Assembly: GCF_000002075.1 (NCBI RefSeq) | Contig: NW_004797365.1 | Span: forward strand, 1,145,358 to 1,209,357 | DNA from: Aplysia californica | Taxonomy: Eukaryota | DNA: 64,000 nucleotides | Direction: 5' to 3' | Part shown: positions 28,774 to 56,894 of the stretch, one piece after another | Layout: every line of letters begins with the position of its first letter | Position numbering within the stretch: position 1 is the first letter of the stretch | Made by a program: the position numbers and the translations under genes | The notes under the pieces: generated by a model | Told to the model about the DNA's origin: nothing | The model's database searches: none | What the model saw: only the letters and a program-made list of their open reading frames with translations

Positions 28774-30306
28774 CTGGGGAAAAAAATACAAAAGAGAAAT
28801 AAGTCAAGATAAAAGAAAGAAGAAAAACAATAACACTATTATTGATTCCAGTAGGGAATTTGGGGAAAAAAGTAACAAATAGAATTCGAGGTTCCATCAA
28901 CACCAAATGTTAAATAAAATCAGAACACACATTTTCCATAGCTGGTCACCACAGTGTAGCACTTTGTTTATGTAGAGCTAATGTGTCTTTCTCAAGGCCA
29001 CATCCAATACACAACGAACTTAAAGACTGTAACGCTTACACACTGTTCCTGGGCCTGAGCTTACTATATAAGAATGGCTTACGTTTCCCATCCAGACACG
29101 AGAATGACCATGTTCTGCCAAGAACAGATCAGGATTAAAGAAACTCTGAGAAGAAGTGGAAAGAACAGAGTTGGTACACCTGCCCTGATTAACAACTCTC
29201 ACAAAAAAAGTTTTCCTCAAGTATTGAATTGAAGTGAGGCATATCATTAGAATAGCAAAAATAATAATAACGGTAATAATAATAAAAATGCAGATCATTT
29301 CTATAGTACCCACTCCCGTAAAATACAGCAGAAGGCGATTTATTACTACCTTCATCTTAAAACAAAATACATGTATCACTTGTACATAACAGCCAATTAT
29401 ACTATCATAGTTCAATCAATGACAAAATACACATCACATATGAACATAAGTGTACTATAAATAAGAAAACTAACAGAGAGATGACATTTCATGAAGCATG
29501 CTTTTAAATTAGTTTTCAATTTTGCCTCCTACTTCTTATCTTCTTTGAATCATCAAACAGAAAGGAGAAAAGGTAAGTTGAAGAACAGAGAGAACAGTTT
29601 GAGGGGGGAACAAACAAGCTTTTGTTTGTGACAGCTACCAAAAAGCAAACGGGCGCTATAACTGCTATTTCGTGTCACAGATGTACACAAGCAACAGATG
29701 GACAGGGGCCATATAGTATATAACGGTAGTGAACAGGCTGCAAGAAAAAGAGGTAGAAATAAAACCAAATCAACTGCATTAAGATGTGAAAGAAGATAAG
29801 ATATATATCCAAAGACATAGAAGACATTGAGAGCATGGAACTCACAGTAATAACACAGAAGACAATTGAAGTACTAGACTACACTGCAATAAGCACTAAC
29901 AAGTTAAGTTTAGAAAGCAGGAGCACATCGGTACAATAATGGTAATCAAGCAAAGGAAGAAAGCAATTATGCTCTACAACCACCCATGCCACTAATGAGT
30001 AGTTGGAAAACAACGGCAAAAATCAACAAAAACAGCAACACTAGTAAAAATAATATCACATTTTACTAGTTAAGAGGTAAAACTCTTTCCCTCAAAATCA
30101 ACCCATATACTACGTCAGAGTATCTTTGGCACAACACAAATTAAGACATTTTGCACCTTCCTCATCTGCGAAATATGATGTCACTTGCAGAGAAATGAAA
30201 CAAATAGCTGAAAGATACCTCGTTTGCATACTCATAGCCAAGAGATGAGTAAAAAATTTTCTAGTGTGCAGACCATGATGAAAAGAAAAAACCCAAAACA
30301 AAACTT

Positions 30307-31165
30307 AGGAAAACAACAGAGGATACATCAAGAGGCAAAAGGTGGACCCTCTTCTCCACCCTCGAGGATCTTGACTTTGCCGACAACCTTGCACTACTCT
30401 CCCATACCAAACAGCACATGCAGGAAAAATCAAACCGAGTCCACAAATACGGACGCCAGATTGGGTTAAGAAAAAGCCAGAAGAAGGCAGAAGTGATGAC
30501 ACTGAATGTAGGCTCCCCAACGCCGATTAGGGTGAACAACACAAACCTCCCTATAACAGACACATTTACCTACCTAGGCAGCATAATCAAAATTGACGGC
30601 GGCAAAAAGGAAGACATCATGAACAGACTCAGCAAGGCAAGAACTGTACACAGAAGTATGATCAACATCTGGAAGTCAGGACACTTTTGTATACAAACCA
30701 AGTTGAAGCTGTATAACAGCTGTGTACTATCCACACTCCTAAATGGAGCTGAAAGCTGGAGCATGACTGATCATGACCGTACCAAGCTATCTTCCTTTCA
30801 TACAACCAGCTTACGCCAAATCCTCAGAATCTTCTGGCCTGACAAGATTTCCAACGCAGATCTGTTACGTAAATGTAAGCAAGAGGACATGACCACCATA
30901 ATAAAAAGGAGAAGATGGAGATGGATTGGACATGTTCTGAGAAGAGAACCAGACACTATTGTGAAGACTGCCCTCCACTGGACACCCAAAGGACGTCGCA
31001 AAAGGGGCAGACCCAAAGCAACCTGAACACGCACAGTAGAGTCTGAAATGAAGTCCTGGAATCATTCGTGGGGAACGCTGACCAAGATGGCCCAAAACAG
31101 ACAGAGCTGGAGATCCTTTGTTGCTGCCCTAAACGCCAGGTGGCGTAATGGGTAGTAAGTAAGTA
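30307..31165 (+). mobile_element. 5'-truncated RTE-clade LINE, same family as 61998-63706
   Basis: LEDLDFADNL, FTYLGS, RWRWIGHVLR; tail GTAGTAAGTAAGTA; imperfect TSD AAAACTTAGG/AAAACTAAGG; visibly near-identical to the 62-kb copy. Confidence 0.93.
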
Positions 31166-48983: not shown

Positions 48984-49697
48984 TGACAAGGAAGTGGCTA
49001 TTCTCACCCCGGGAAAGAATAAAAATACGATCGACCTCTCACCCTGGGTGAGACTGCCAGCATTGGTCTCACCTGGTGTTAAACAATACCTGCTTTTAAT
49101 TTCCTAATTTCTGAATACTTGTGGATGATCAAATTTACAAAAACAAAGAAAAAAATGATGTTACAGTACAAAATTTAAGTTAAACTAGAAATTGGTCATC
49201 TACAAAGATGCTATGGCTTTTTCACTTTTTTCGAAATGAGCCGAACTACGCGGGTCGCCATTTTGTTTTGCTCGGAAGTTCTTACTAGATCTACTCCTTC
49301 TCTCACTTCTCTCTTTCTGAACACTGTCTAGATTATACTAGATATCTAGATATCAGTGTGGACGATCAAATTGACAAAAACAATGAAAAAAAAATGATAT
49401 CATAGCACAAAAGTAAATTAATTTGGTCATCTACAAAGATGCTGAACAGCTATTTCACTTTTTGAACCGAGCCGAACTACACCGGCCGCCATTTTGTTTT
49501 GCCCGGAAGTTTTTGCGCTACTCCTCTCTCTCTCTCCCCCCCCCCCCATCTCTCTCTCTCTGCTCTCTCTTTCTCTCTCACTGCCCACAGACAAAATTAC
49601 ATGCTTTCAACACAAAAGTGCTGGAACCTTCGTTCTCGGTGAACGCTACACTGGTTGGCCTATCACGGTGAATGCGCACCGGATGAGAATAGCCAAA
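48984..49697. mobile_element. Helentron/HINE-like element with two internal repeats of about 235 bp
   Basis: GACAAG start; subterminal inverted repeat GGCTATTCTCA / TGAGAATAGCC; short CGGTG..CACCG hairpin; CT microsatellite; duplicated core at about 49120-49320 and 49357-49530. Confidence 0.55.
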
Positions 49698-50160
49698 AGG
49701 CTCGCCTGCACTATTCTCACCCAGGGTGAGAATAGAGAGGTGGCCTCACCTATTATTCATTGACAAGCCTGGTTAGATCTACACTTTCACAAGAAGCTCT
49801 TCTGAATCAATGACCAAGATTGCTGTGGAATAATAACCATACTGTACTACTAAGTAACTATTTCTGTTCTGATTCCTGAGTGTGGTACTGAGTCTTGGAT
49901 CTTGCACACATCTGTCGTGTGTCCTATCCTAAACTTAACAACTAGAGAATTTTACTCTAAATACAGATCTACCACCAGTTGATCGAGAATTTGTTTGACA
50001 AATACATTATTCTTAGAATGAGTATCTTTATAAAAATGTGTTGTGAAGCCAAAACATTCAAATAACCAGAAGAAAATATGTATCGAGACCAAGACATAAA
50101 CAAAGGTAACGCCCACCTTCAGTTGTCCCCTCTTCCAAAATTGCTCTCAGAGCCACTCAC

Positions 50161-50260
50161 CTTCTGCAATTACTTCATCAACAACAACAGAAAAGCGGCC
50201 GATTTGAAAAGTCTTCCCAATGTGAGGACTTTGTTGATTTGAACTAAATAACTTTTTCAT
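50161..50260 (-). CDS. AAK1: AAK1/BMP2K-like exon 1 (MKKLFSSNQQSPHIGKTFQIGRFSVVVDEVIAEG)
   Basis: ATG at 50260; MKKxF start and V.V.EV.AEG typical of AAK1; donor G|GTGAGT; 100 nt. Confidence 0.93.
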
Positions 50261-50706
50261 TTTGCAATGCGTTGACCATCCGGTCTAAAAGTCAAAATCT
50301 ATCCATTTTTGTGAAGCAGTATTACTCATTGTCGGTACAATTCTACAGTAAGAAAGTGTCCACTTCCTGTTTAGGTTATGACCACTTCCGCTATCAATCA
50401 AATGTGAATACAGAAAGTTTCGCATTCAACTTAAATACTTTAAAATTTTGTGCTTTGAATGACTTCAAAGTGAATCTTATGCTTGGTTCCCATTTTGAAC
50501 TTATTTTAATCAAAACTGGAGATTCTATAAGCAAAGCTCATTCTCTCTATCTCTGCAACAGGGAAAAAGCGGAAGAGAGACCTGGAGAGACACAATTTAC
50601 TAAAATTTTGGACGAAAATTTTGCCAACCAAACAAAACGGAACAGGAAAAGAAGAAAACGAAAGTTCCAAATTTCGTGCCGAATCCGACCGAAGGATTCT
50701 GACAAA
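50261..50706. promoter_or_regulatory. Bidirectional promoter and 5' UTR region between AAK1-like and JMJD8
   Basis: Divergent start codons 446 bp apart; ETS-type ACTTCC(T/G) cores near 50362 and 50384, and CGGAAG at about 50570. Confidence 0.75.
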
Positions 50707-50828
50707 ATGTTGAAAATGCATGTTCGAGACAAGATGTCAACGTTTTCTTGGTTTCTTATTTTGGCTGGAGTGTGTACAACGACCTCCTCCTGTTTGACTG
50801 ACGAGGGATCTTTAGATGATGGGGGATG
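50707..50828 (+). CDS. JMJD8: JMJD8 exon 1 with signal peptide (MLKMHVRDKMSTFSWFLILAGVCTTTSSCLTDEGSLDDGGW); start could be 50707, 50716 or 50734
   Basis: Hydrophobic N-terminal stretch followed by DGGW; donor TG|GTAATT, phase 2, joins exon 2. Confidence 0.8.
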
Positions 50829-50847
50829 GTAATTCCACTTTTCTTAT

Positions 50848-51661
50848 TAGTCTAGATCTAGATTCTAGATTTTTATAGATCTATATTCTATATCTAGATC
50901 ACGACTCACGGCAGTCACGGACCGTTTTAGCAATCCAGATCTAGATTCTAGATCTAGTCTAGATCTACCAGCTGTTGCCTGTCCTCTGTAGTGTAGCTGT
51001 CTGAAGTGAAGGCCTACCAGCCAGCCAGAGTCAGTTCATTGCTTCATTGCCCTTTTTTCTGCAATGGGGCTCCACGGAGTGAAGCTGTGGCAATTGACAC
51101 TGGTGTCAATTGCCATCTAGTGAAGCGGTGTCAAGTCTGAAAACAACACCTTAGATCTAGTAGTATTCTAGTCTGTCTAGTCTAGATCTAGACTCTAGAT
51201 CTATCTTTAGCTTTCTATTATAATGTGTTATGAACACATGAAAAAGCTAGAGTCTAGATCTAGAATCTAGATCTAACCCCCTCTCATAAGTTGAAAGTCA
51301 TAACGAGTAGTTCTTATCACAGCTCAATCCCAGAGTGCAGTCTGATTCTGATCTATTCTATTTAGGCTATTGCTATTGTTAGGGGACCGTACGCCCCAAT
51401 AGCGCTTGGCGCTAGGGGACTGTACGGCCCCATAATGTTTGGCGCTAGGGGACCGTACGTCCTACCTGCGCTGAGGCGTGGTGTTATGGGGCTGTACGCA
51501 GATATGCATGCATCTGGACTTTGCAAAAATACTGGAGGAAAACGGCCAGTTTAACGCCGAAGTGTATACAGACCCGGTAACCTGGAACAAAGTCACGAAG
51601 TATACAGGCCCGGTAGGGGAACTCTTTTGCGATTTCGGAAAGTTTCAGCACCCAGACCCGG

Positions 51662-51718
<57 letters not shown>

Positions 51719-52161
51719 TGAGTGAGTGAGAGAGAGAGAGAGAGAGGAGAGAGCAGAGGGAAGTGCTAGCAAAATGTATGACACAGTTGGCAGGAGGGAA
51801 CGAGAGAAAGATAGAGTGGGAAATACGAGGGGAGAAAGAAAGACAGAGACAAACAAAAAAAAGAGAATGCGAGCGATACACAGAGACAGAAGAAGGAGAG
51901 GGAGAGAGAGAGGGGGGGGGGGGGGGGGTGACTGCTCGATTTAAATTATGACATTGTTCTTTTCTTCAAATTGTGATTCCTCCAACTCCAAAACGGGGGA
52001 AAAACGATCGTTCATCGAAAAGACATCCGCAATCTTCATGATTTAGATTTAGATCTAGATTCTAGGTCTCTAGATTCTAGATCTAGATATAGGCTAGCCT
52101 CGAAACTAGATCAATGATTTATATCTGTCGGTCTAGATCTAGACCTAGGCCATAGATCTAG
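50848..52161. repeat. Clusters of overlapping TCTAGA/AGATCT palindromes (50848-50967, 51152-51274, 52046-52161)
   Basis: Direct reading, for example TAGTCTAGATCTAGATTCTAGA; a smaller cluster at 49284-49353. Confidence 0.9.
51664..51752. repeat. (GT)n-(GA)n compound microsatellite
   Basis: Direct reading. Confidence 0.95.
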
Positions 52162-52291
52162 AAGAACCTAGTTTTACCCTGAGCCAAGAGGGCGCTGGAA
52201 CTCTCCGAAATCACAAAAGAGTTCCCCTACCGGGTCTGTATACATTGTGACTTTGTTCCCGGTTACCGGGTCTGTATACACTCCCGTTTAA

Positions 52292-52385
52292 CGAAGCTCC
52301 TGACGTAAGGAGTTATTACTAGGAGAATGTTTAAAATGTCTGAATACATTCTCCCTAGTAATAACTCCTTACGTCTGGAGCTTCA
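52292..52385. mobile_element. 94-bp hairpin MITE with TTAA TSD, nested in the right arm of the foldback element
   Basis: About 38-bp inverted repeat CGAAGCTCC..ACGTAAGGAGTTATTACTAGG; TTAA on both sides; the left arm shows the empty site GTTAAACTGG. Confidence 0.85.
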
Positions 52386-52543
52386 TTAAACTGGCCGTTT
52401 TCCTCCTGTATTTTTGCAAAGTCCAGATGCATGCAGTATAATATATTCATCTACGTACAGTTCTGTAACACCACGCCTAAGCGCAGGTAGGACGTACGGT
52501 CCCCTAGCGCCAAACACTATGGGGGCGTACGGTCCCCTCCTAG

Positions 52544-53149
52544 TAGGGGCGGGCACGAGACGAGCCGAGTACCCGTTTCTCGCGGGTAACGGCCTTCCCG
52601 TCACTTCCCGGGCACTAAACTACTGCTCAGTACCGAGACATGATATTGCTCGTTGGCTTGACACAACGAGTAACAGTAACGAGAGTGAGAGAGTGAGAGG
52701 CGAGAAATGACAACGCAGACAGTGCCACCCATCACCGTGCCGTCCTGTGTGTGAAACTGAAAGGGAGAGGAGAGGTTGGCGAGACGAGGCGAGTGGGGAG
52801 TTGATCAGGGCCTAGGCCTAGGTCTCCCTACCTTCCTTCACCGCCTGCGCCTGCGCAACAGGGCAAGCCTAGTTTCTAAGTTTAGATCCCCGCCACGATC
52901 GGTCTTCTCGCTAAACGAGCTGCTCGTTCTGTGGGGCGAGAAGAGAAATCTCGGCCACGGCCGGTCTTCTCGCTGAACGGGTGGCTCGAACTGCGGGGCG
53001 AGAAGAGAAATTGGTCACGAGACGAGAAGTATTTCTCGAGACACGAGACGGGAAATATTTCCCGTTCTCGGGACCGGTCCTGGCGAGAAGAAGGTCAGCT
53101 TCTCGGTCTTCTCGCTCGGGAAGGAAAAAGCGCTTCCCGCCCGTCTCTA
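52544..53149. mobile_element. Non-autonomous hAT-like element, 8-bp TSD CCTCCTAG
   Basis: TIR TAGGGGCGGGC / GCCCGTCTCTA; TSD at 52536-52543 and 53150-53157. Confidence 0.85.
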
Positions 53150-53835
53150 CCTCCTAGCGCCAAGTGCTATTGGGGCGTACGGTCCCCTAATATCAGCCTT
53201 CTATTTATAAAGGAAGTGGATATTTATACGGCAGGCCGTCGAAAAATCGGAAGTGATAATTCCACGGCACATAAATTCAGCCAATCAGGACATCCGGACT
53301 ATTTATAATTAAGCCTATTTTCTTTTCCATAAGTAACGCATTATAGATACAATTTAATGATACATGTATTATGTATGTTTAGTTAACAATGTTTGTCCTT
53401 TGCTATCATTTTGTGCATTATGGACAATGATGAAATGTTTTGTGTCACTGTAACGAGAGTGAGAGATGCACAATTTATTTTGTGCAAGCAAAATGGAGAG
53501 AAGACTGGTTTGGGTTTTTTTGCCAACAGTAGGGTGCCCATTTGCGGATGGGATCTGGTCGGGTAGGGATGATCACCCGACTCGTCGCCTGGAAAACAAA
53601 CACAATTCTTGCATTGATACACTTCAAACAGAGCCTATACCGTCGAAATATCAATTCAGATATTTCGACTCAAGACGGCATACCATATAGGTTCACTTCC
53701 GATGTTCAGACAGCACAGCATGCCGTGGAAATATCAACTACGATCTTCAGACGGCATGCCGTGGAAATATCGCTACCCATTTATAAATCATAATGGCCAC
53801 CTGTCCAAGACAATCAGCTGTGTCATTATTCGGAC

Positions 53836-54472
53836 AGTGTCTACGTACATGGTAACCGGGCACCTAGTGTCAGTATCTACGTACACGGTAACCGGGCACC
53901 TAGTCTCACCTTGACTCAGTATCTACGTACATGGTAACCGGGCACCTAGTCTCAGTATCTACGTACACGGTAACCAGAATGAAAATTAATCATATATATA
54001 TTTGTCCTCTGTGCTGTCTCTTGCTGAAAAAAAGAAAGTTCATACAAGTGTCTTGTTGGGCTTGCGATCGTGACTAGTCAGTGAACCTGCGCGAGTGCAT
54101 CACATTGTCATTGTGAGTACCGGTTGGGGTCACAGAAATTCATTTTAAGTCTGTGCGCTGCGAAGTATAATATAGGGCTCCGGAATGGGGGGGATTATTG
54201 ATTTTTTTTTTTTAAAGTAGGCCTACAGTCGGGGGAGGGGTGGGGATGAAGGCAACACTGGATGACAAAACCTGAACTTGGAGTTCTGAACTGCCCTGTT
54301 ACCGTGTACGTGACACAGGGACTACGTGCCTGGTTGCCAGTTACCGTGTACGTAGATGAGGCTACATGCCCGGTTACCGTGTACATGACACTGAGACTAC
54401 GTGCCCGGTTGCCGGTTACTGTGTACGTAGACACTGAGGCTAGGCGCCGGGTTACCGTATACGTAGAGACAC
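53836..54472. mobile_element. MITE with inverted subterminal tandem repeats (TCTACGTACA(C/T)GGTAACCGGGCAC)
   Basis: Four copies forward at 53836-53975; about five copies reverse at 54295-54472. Confidence 0.75.
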
Positions 54473-56894
54473 TTCGTTTCGGATAGGGGGTGTGTGATTA
54501 ATCAGATTATTATTCGGACCACCCTTCTTTCCAGTCCCGTATCAGTCTGGCCCTCCTACCTCAGCACCATCATCCTTGTGATGACTGCGTGTGTGTGTGT
54601 GTCAGTCTGCTTGAGTTTGTGTGCGTTTGTGGCCTACTTGTAGAACCGCCTGCGTTGATTCGTAAACGAGGCGTGCGTCTCATGGAATTCAAAACATTCC
54701 AAGTTGGTAGCTCTAGATGTCTGTCTAATTAAATTATAGCAAATTGACCCACTTAGACATGAGGAGCTCAGAAGACTCGCATCTCGGCACAGACGCAGAA
54801 CAAGTTTTGACTTTTTTTTAGTTTGTTTTGTATGCTGAACACAAATTTGACTCCATTTCATAGCCTACAAAACGTTCACGGTGTAGTCACTGTGTTTTTA
54901 AAAACATTAAAACTAAAACCAACTCGCCAATTATGCCTCTTCACCCCGGTTGAGAATACAAATGCAGCCAGTGGCGGTGGGTAGTGAAGGGCTCACGGGC
55001 TTGAGCCCCCCTCCCTACCCCCCAACTCTATCGCAAAGCAAATGAAAATAACGAAATTATAAGCAGGTGAAATTGTAGTTATGATCACTCTGTGAACACA
55101 GGGTATTCAAGTTGGTGGCTTCCTCGTTTCTCCAATCACTATTGTCACGGCTTACAACTATTACCATAGTAACCTAACTGCTAATCAAATGTCTTAAGGG
55201 CTCAGCAAAGGACGAGCCCGTTCCCCGGCCCCCACTTAATGAAACCCCTCTTGTAAAGAGGTAGAAGACTTGAAAAAATGACACTGCACAGAGAGCTCAC
55301 GCTCTCCTAGCCCTGACAATGGAGTGAAAGTTGACGACACACTTTCCCTCAATGACACAGTTACCTGTGCACCCATTGGACCTTTGTTAGGTGCGTTCTA
55401 CTTTCTGAGGCTACACGGCCTAATCCAGCTCATGCACTGTATGTTTGGAGTGCTGTGTGTGCCGCTGAGATTTAACAGTTATTTATTACATTTCATTACT
55501 TCAAACCGCTTTTGAGGCTACTTTTTCACCAGATGAAAATCAATAAGAAAAATTTGGAGATAAAACGGTTTTGTCCCCACCATCCAGAAGAATTTAACGT
55601 TGAACAAAAAGATGGAGGACAGAAGTGATTCTTCTCCTTTGAATGATTCTCAAAATTCTGTGGCTCGCTGTGAGTAGATAGAAAAATCATCACTGTTTTG
55701 TTCTTATTGCTTGCTATTTGGTGGTAAAGAAGTGGAAGCAACCTAAGCCCCACCCAAATTTTGCAGCCCATTTTAATATGTTCCTGTTTAAGTGTTCTAC
55801 AGCATTCACATGTGTTGCGCATCATAGGCCATTACATGCCGTCATCCAAACATCAGTCAGAAACCTTCTCTCAAAAATGCATATATATCGAGGGACCAAT
55901 CAAAAAACATTTCGAAGCATCCTTTCAGTTGGAGTGACTGCATGTGCGTTTGTACATGATCTAAATTATATTTTTTTTAAAAATCAGATGACGAATGCAT
56001 GTGTTTGAGTGGAGCGTACTTTTGTATGGCAAGCGTTTAGGCGGAGACTAATGTAATACACATCTATATAGAAAGATGTTATTTATTGAATCATAATCAT
56101 TATTGTTGCCGGTGCATCTCAATTTATGTCTAGTCAACCAAGATGAGACTACTAGATGAGGAAAACAAATATCACAGGAGAAGAAAGCATGAGACTGATA
56201 CCTTGGTAATGGGTTATCTATGTACTTTAATAAAAGTGATCCCATTTATTTATTTATTACAGTGAATGTAAATATGATACCCAACTATAGCAGGGTTTGG
56301 CAATACCAGGGACATCACGTCGGTCCTGACTGTTCTGTTATAGCGGATAGCGGGGGCGAACTGTAATTCTATTATGGCACATTAATTTTTTAATTAAAAC
56401 ATCATGGGATAGGCATAAAGCAGGTGATTGCAAAAATTTTGTTGTGGGCTTGAGTGATTTCAATATGAATTAGAGATAAAATCAAATGTTATTTATTTTT
56501 TACATAAGAAGAAAATGCTTTGGGCTTGTTTGTTTTTTTTGTTTTTTTTTGGGGGGGGGGTATTTATAGATACACAGTTTAATATGTCACAATAATATGA
56601 AACTTAGGCATCATGTACACACTTGAAATTATTGCCATATATATGAAAGTGCACCCGATAAATCTTTCCATTGTTATGTACACTTATTAAAATGACCCTC
56701 ACAAGAATTTATTAGCTTTTTTTTTCTACAATCTTTCTCTTTACCTTTAGCAAATGGGACAAAACTCAGAGTTGTTAAGAGTTAAAGTCATTTTCAGTCA
56801 TTAGTTCTGGGTGGACTACCTCCTAATTGTGAATGAGGTTTCATTGTTTTGAATTATCAATACCTTATTTTTTCATGTTTAATTGTTATTGCAG

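Follow-up and report, generated by a model that had tools for sequence, protein, structure and literature searches.

TA-GATC-TA arrays beside a divergent promoter in Aplysia californica, tentatively read as stacked transposon excision scars

The window analysed here, a stretch of 64,000 nucleotides of the Aplysia californica genome (NCBI RefSeq assembly GCF_000002075.1, contig NW_004797365.1, positions 1,145,358 to 1,209,357 of the forward strand), carries two divergently transcribed genes whose first introns contain dense arrays of the palindromic hexamers TCTAGA and AGATCT. RNA contigs from two runs place a minus-strand first exon at 50338-50160, spliced to 44613, and a plus-strand first exon at about 50430-50828, with a GT..AG joint from 50827 to 56894. 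These contigs locate the starts only roughly, raw reads are thin over the first exons, and none of the runs listed as containing the sequence is recorded as RNA. The divergent first exons, whose contig ends fall at 50338 and 50430, back the bidirectional promoter that the initial annotation had proposed. The minus-strand gene is AAK1/BMP2K-like, its exon 2 matching AAK1 in PDB (E=4.5e-12). The plus-strand gene had been named JMJD8, a name that received no support from any search tool; its exons fit a JMJD8-like motif, and the name is unconfirmed.

Between positions 50848 and 52161 (1,314 bp), 33 hexamers are found where 0.6 would be expected (Poisson p=7e-45), the rest of the window beyond 49284-52161 having 28 in 59,900 non-N bases. 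The chains lie where the initial annotation had put them, the first beginning about 20 bp past the donor of the plus-strand gene (RNA joint 50827/56894). Both first exons and the stretch between them (50160-50830) are free of hexamers. Among the weaker arrays also proposed, the insertion at 49327-49354 stands, whereas 49774 (a single TAGATCTA) and 49965 (a lone AGATCT) are not arrays. The array unit is better read as TA-GATC-TA, and TAGATCTA occurs 16 times in the window, 15 of them within 49286-52153. A 24-base array word has 1,269 occurrences in the 927-Mb genome and its reversal has 7. Perfect runs are common: a 20-mer spanning three units has 7,478 matches, and its reversal, being this repeat in a different phase, is no valid control. 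The features of the locus are listed in Table 1.

Table 1. Arrays, repeats and transcribed features around the divergent promoter (positions within the window).
Feature	Position	Strand	Remarks
Non-autonomous promoter-enriched repeat, family 0, in AAK1 intron 1	48990..49745	.	
Single TAGATCTA in family 0 copy	49286..49293	.	partly subfamily state (L029: AGATCTA here)
22-bp insertion with duplicated TA at its bounds	49327..49354	.	private to this family 0 copy
Single TAGATCTA	49774..49781	.	
Lone AGATCT without 5' TA	49965..49970	.	chance possible
First exon, AAK1/BMP2K-like kinase gene	50160..50338	-	RNA contigs; no hexamers
Likely shared core promoter, about 90 bp between contig ends	50339..50429	.	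contig ends in one run; putative promoter role; no hexamers
First exon, plus-strand gene	50430..50828	+	RNA contigs; no hexamers
Array 1a, units GTC, GATC, GATTC, GATC and decayed units, TA-separated	50848..50900	.	single-copy intron DNA by contig depth of flanks
Array 1b, units GATC, GATTC, GATC, GTC, GATC	50933..50967	.	
Array 2a, insertion of about 50 bp only in this copy of a dispersed repeat	51150..51203	.	paralog alignment
Array 2b, units GAGTC, GATC, GAATC, GATC on the single AGATCT of array 2a's repeat	51247..51275	.	
Outer composite repeat (miniature inverted-repeat transposable element, MITE, of the initial annotation)	51372..53197	.	inverted arms
Inner inverted-repeat element with array 3 (family 1)	51561..52282	.	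arms 51561-51653, 52190-52282
Array 3, inherited with inner repeat family	52040..52162	.	units gained and lost between copies

The arrays are real, occur genome-wide and are enriched at gene 5' ends. For this comparison, 10-kb loci were taken at the first exon encoding the domain in 40 Ras-family matches (of the 44 listed that begin at profile position 1-3), 18 DnaJ matches (of 32) and 2 E2 matches (of 51). The controls comprised 18 HECT 3' ends and 20 round-coordinate loci on large contigs, picked by hand with no formal random draw. With a cluster defined as at least four hexamers separated by gaps of up to 60 nt, clusters occur in 27/60 gene 5' loci (Ras 15/40, DnaJ and E2 12/20) and in 4/38 controls (round coordinates 1/20, HECT 3' ends 3/18; Fisher p=3e-4); a threshold of three hexamers gives p=3e-4 and one of five gives p=5e-3. 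The link to gene starts that had been suggested is supported at these other loci. Since the exon with the domain is often a later one than exon 1, the result is an enrichment near 5' ends and not a distance profile, and for the same reason the array profile against the protein-domain start is flat and noisy. The observed/expected (O/E) ratio of CpG is 0.69-0.74 at less than 1 kb from clusters and 0.57-0.62 farther out. Pair-distance histograms of the 5' loci showed no peak at a 200-bp period (384 pairs, limited power).

TAGATCTA was found 290 times in the 60 5' loci (O/E 34) and 42 times in 37 controls (O/E 11.5), one near-duplicate HECT locus having been removed from the latter, and TAGGCCTA 74 times (O/E 19) and 13 times (O/E 7.8), respectively. 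Besides TATATATA, these are the only two of the 16 palindromic TA-NNNN-TA words that stand out. In 26 loci picked for their arrays, ETS- and YY1-like words are enriched 6.2- and 4.3-fold; this carries little weight, as the words also lie inside promoter-enriched repeats.

The arrays belong to transposons only in part. The array at 52040-52162 is present in 29/29 other retrieved copies of the inner repeat, a sample in which the query, containing the array, favoured such copies; it travels with its repeat family and alone shows no position effect, and single copies have specific gains and losses. Array 2a, in contrast, is missing from 29/29 aligned paralogous loci, and L165 and L171 carry other insertions at the same site. 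Eight paralogs align at array 2b, most with one AGATCT and one (L162) with a short chain of its own, and at the TA of the 49327-49354 insertion another copy (L190) has TA-GGC-TA. The initial annotation had regarded the arrays as independent of transposons and tied to promoter position. Independence holds for array 1 in its single-copy intron and for two copy-private insertions, and fails for 52040-52162, and promoter-enriched repeat families also carry arrays along; the position claim is supported by the 5' enrichment at other loci. In part, then, repeats both gather arrays and transport them. Eight of the nine copies of family 0 from loci not picked for arrays come from gene 5' loci, the ninth being the window copy. 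Several non-autonomous families are nearly confined to 5' loci, families 0, 1, 9 and 11 having for instance 8, 4, 5 and 10 copies there vs 0, 0, 0 and 1 in controls. Family 0 contains ETS- and YY1-like words, and the ends of these families look HINE-like. A TA-GGGG terminus for the outer MITE was rejected; it is internal, other copies sharing bases beyond the TA. Just past the MITE, at 53210-54470, lie two more inverted-repeat elements with internal repeats of 35-46 bp. The window also holds, at 30265-31023, a frame fragment of 253 aa which we take to be a reverse transcriptase of the long interspersed nuclear element (LINE) type, and elsewhere (L008:1400-1620) a three-unit chain sits within the reverse-transcriptase frame of a LINE fragment.

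How arrays begin can be followed where copies of one repeat differ. A strict first screen for private indels returned 5/57 array-like insertions, and family alignments were then used instead. Across 22 repeat families from 184 loci, comparison with the majority sequence gave 259 insertions of 4-45 nt. Of these, 60 duplicate TA, more than any of 12 other dinucleotides (10-42 each). Restricting these to insertions in at most three copies, with a spacer starting in G and no simple tandem copies, left 24 events of the form TA, spacer, TA. The spacer ends in C in 19/24 and consists of GATC, GATT, GATATC, GGCC, GGC, GCC, GACC or chains of these. The targets are CTA or TAG in 22/24 events vs 49% of the TAs in those families. 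An existing unit lies within 60 nt in 5/24 events and a fold-back of the flank fits 3/24, leaving 17/24 with neither. One site of family 2 holds GGC or GCC depending on the copy, and multi-unit insertions of 12-50 nt occur where every paralog has an empty site. These filled and empty copies indicate that the arrays are produced by TA-duplicating insertion. Among 98 loci chosen without regard to arrays, spacers vary at the centre, with one extra A/T in 36 cases, extra edge G/C in 0 and an extra base within the TA in 1; the centre is TA in 8 and AT in 0. Deletions of TA-G units are concentrated in array 3 (7/9), and whole-unit loss inside existing arrays is slippage.

The arrays may well be stacked excision scars of a cut-and-paste transposase that targets TA in open promoter chromatin, a reading that we put forward tentatively. 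Two properties expected of Tc1/mariner-type footprints are present, namely a TA duplication relative to the empty site and, in 17/24 events, a spacer foreign to the flanks. An element with ends GAT...ATC would insert at C-TA-G in accessible germline chromatin and then excise, and a second element with ends GG(C)...(G)CC would act likewise. End-joining of leftovers of 2-3 nt could yield GATC, GATTC/GAATC, GATATC, GAT/ATC, GGCC or GGC/GCC between two TAs. Variation confined to the centre, with TA in 8 and AT in none, is what GAT and ATC ends predict. Because every scar would rebuild C-TA-G, the preferred target, one spot could be hit repeatedly and scars would stack. Selection would purge scars from exons and the core promoter and spare those in first introns, slippage would afterwards add or remove whole units, and promoter-seeking repeats would bring arrays to further promoters. 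From the form of the unit, the comparison of filled with empty copies and the 5' enrichment, all of them observed, we infer the parent element and its ends. Likewise, the promoter bias is that of the finished arrays, from which we infer the same bias for the writing process. A mutational process acting on open chromatin was one branch suggested by the initial annotation; the 5' enrichment and private insertions favour that branch, with open chromatin as its presumed setting.

Several observations weigh against such scars. No element of the form TA-GA..TC-TA or TA-GG..CC-TA was seen in 90 transposase loci (20 PF13359, PIF/ISL2EU; 20 PF13358, Tc1; 20 PF03184, pogo; 30 PF01359, mariner), a small sample given more than 1,000 candidates per large family, with ends unresolved in many, pogo ends mostly unresolved and hAT ends not examined. 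A repeat-boundary scan of 1.3-1.7 Mb of fetched DNA also gave no TA element with GA or GG ends. The TA-flanked ends that were resolved are CGA (at least 14/19 mariner calls), AAC, CTG and CAG. A young mariner with TA-CGA ends is present and yet TACGCGTA, seen once in 60 loci, is not in excess, and TACATGTA is only 4.3/2.6-fold enriched. The commonest scar would thus have no visible parent, and few scars would come from the visible parents. The spacers GAAATC/GATTTC match GATATC in frequency (9 and 8 of 205) and need an extra step. New insertions in copies with array-rich flanks number 17 vs 15.0 expected (stratified, z=0.95, not significant), or 21 in 55.7 kb vs 12 in 51.2 kb (p=0.12), array density of the flanks being a crude proxy for promoter distance; family 2 alone showed a flank effect, with 3 events in 18 array-rich-flank copies and 0 in 107 others. 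Event polarity was taken from the majority consensus, with no outgroup.

The search for a parent brought other elements to light. The mariner loci L278-L307 include an abundant young mariner of about 1.37 kb with TA-CGAGGG ends and open frames of up to 383 aa. The pogo loci L258-L277 hold many pogo-like frames of 500-900 aa without terminal repeats, as expected for domesticated genes, and arrays often lie 1-3 kb off. A young ISL2EU element (L191:2060-6680; G000:C309:312560-317179) has intact THAP-HTH-DDE and YqaJ frames, AT duplication and AGA...TCT ends, with 18 end matches genome-wide and TAGATCTA chains upstream of its own transposase. ISL2EU, of the PHIS superfamily (PMC4482050), resembles the source required in that the young family here ends in AGA...TCT and could leave AGATCT; unlike that source, it duplicates AT at A-AT-T. 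It was rejected: ATAGATCTAT makes up 5/290 TAGATCTA contexts (A.T), about 10 copies exist, and the listed AT-duplicating insertions include no AT-AGATCT-AT event. A Harbinger-like element (L203:1343-8474) with TTA-GAG..CTC-TTA ends was set aside as well, since it duplicates 3 bp, the length known for Harbinger (PMC9179366). hAT elements of the Charlie/Buster type target NTCTAGAN, and their footprints would show an 8-bp target duplication with hairpin-derived bases from the flank. Such footprints were rejected, the duplications here being 2 bp and fold-back fitting 3/24, with the ends of hAT elements not examined.

Three other accounts were weighed. If the units were written without any element, a host enzyme such as SPO11, a topoisomerase or a domesticated transposase would cut TA sites of promoter chromatin with a 2-nt stagger. 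Repair would then insert a short piece, either copied in trans from existing arrays via TAG/CTA microhomology or added by that enzyme. The failure to find a parent in the sampled loci speaks for this account, as do the strong TAG/CTA bias, which suits microhomology priming, and the multi-unit insertions of 12-50 nt at sites empty in every paralog. SPO11 leaves 2-nt overhangs and cuts nucleosome-free promoters (PMC12203943), which fits too, and PRDM9-directed hotspots are not evident, a search for the SSXRD domain having given nothing above the cut-off (the domain is short and the search weak). Element-free writing nevertheless leaves the origin of the first GATC and GGCC unexplained, along with the centre-confined variation and the occurrence of GGC and GCC at one site, and no such repair product is described in the partial literature texts examined. 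We consider it less likely than the excision scars, though next in rank, and its extension about as likely: a host enzyme or domesticated transposase would still be writing G...C spacers at TA beside active germline promoters, with no mobile element and with words specific to each lineage. Were that true, the words would be TAGATCTA here, TAGCTA-type in fish and TACATGTA or TAGGCCTA elsewhere, and what pass for promoter "motifs" in many animals and algae would record past mutation in the open chromatin of the germline, perhaps later recruited as a nucleosome signal.

Whatever wrote the words, selection could instead maintain them because they serve housekeeping promoters as binding sites or as signals for nucleosome linkers. 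The clusters' enrichment at 5' ends and the higher CpG ratio within 1 kb of them agree with this, and there are precedents: the linker words GCTAGC and TAGCTA are in the top 20 in the hypomethylated promoter domains of medaka (PMC5607494), and Oikopleura has TCTAGA as an element of its core promoters (PMC6389100). Selection is nonetheless improbable, given that distance from the start is not fixed, the core promoter here has no hexamers, 200-bp spacing is absent and turnover between repeat copies is fast. In addition, 33/60 5' loci lack clusters (true starts may fall outside those loci), and TCTAGA and AGATCT are weighted negative in the medaka model (PMC5607494). Least probable is a plain self-complementary microsatellite, (AGATCT)n, lengthened by slippage and dispersed by repeats that happen to insert near promoters. 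It would account for array 3 being in the family consensus, for the abundance of perfect three-unit runs, for the unit deletions within array 3 and for the several repeat families confined to 5' loci. Births at single TAs lacking an earlier unit in the vicinity (17/24), arrays in a single-copy intron and variation restricted to the spacer centre, which is unlike slippage, run counter to it. As judged from the aligned copies, slippage is contradicted for births and survives as a change in length of existing arrays such as array 3.

If the excision-scar reading is right, directed insertion has rewritten the flanks of thousands of this genome's promoters, and arrays would flag germline-active promoters from sequence alone. 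Motif finders would be misled into calling a transcription-factor site, and the TA-centred promoter words of fish and oomycetes, so far unexplained, would gain a testable origin. A literature search covering few subscription journals found no paper on such arrays in gastropods. A metagenome scan gave nine loci, two of them with dense chains, seemingly from another eukaryote. In these two (L233 and L237), dense TAGATCTA chains mixed with TACATGTA stand beside an intron-containing frame, presumably metacaspase-like, and it looks as if another eukaryote has such chains.

Known systems share some of these features. In medaka, the words GCTAAC, GCTAGC and TAGCTA mark the linkers of promoters, whereas TCTAGA and AGATCT score negative; the authors put forward a sequence code, and a mutational origin is not discussed in the available part of that text (PMC5607494). 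The linker 6-mers of medaka and zebrafish are, as here, short TA-centred words around promoters, most with no known factor, but the word is another one and the 200-bp period seen there is absent here. In Oikopleura, one TCTAGA lies 40-50 nt upstream of testis starts (PMC6389100). The hexamer and its link to transcription starts are the same, whereas the Oikopleura element is single, fixed in position and testis-specific, and the chains here extend hundreds of bases into first introns with none in the core promoter. A motif 40-50 nt upstream was not found at this one promoter, 50160-50830 being free of hexamers. In Phytophthora, motif-1, TACATGTA, is upstream of 12,070 genes, and the authors note a likeness to Tc1 footprints and reject a footprint origin (PMC3520976). 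It too is a TA-NNNN-TA palindrome abundant upstream of genes, differing in spacer and phylum, and chains are not described in the part of the paper available. The nearest likeness in form is to Tc1/mariner footprints, which arise at TA, have two copies of TA enclosing 2-6 foreign nt that resemble element ends, and show paired 3-nt variants at one site. The arrays here differ in having spacers that start with G and not C, in numbering thousands, in being stacked in chains concentrated at promoters, and in that the parent was not found. The Tc1 footprint is taCATGta, as cited in PMC3520976, and those of Sleeping Beauty are TACAGTA, TACTGTA and six shorter sequences (10.1101/659086), whose CAG/CTG pair is resembled by the GGC/GCC pair at one site of family 2.

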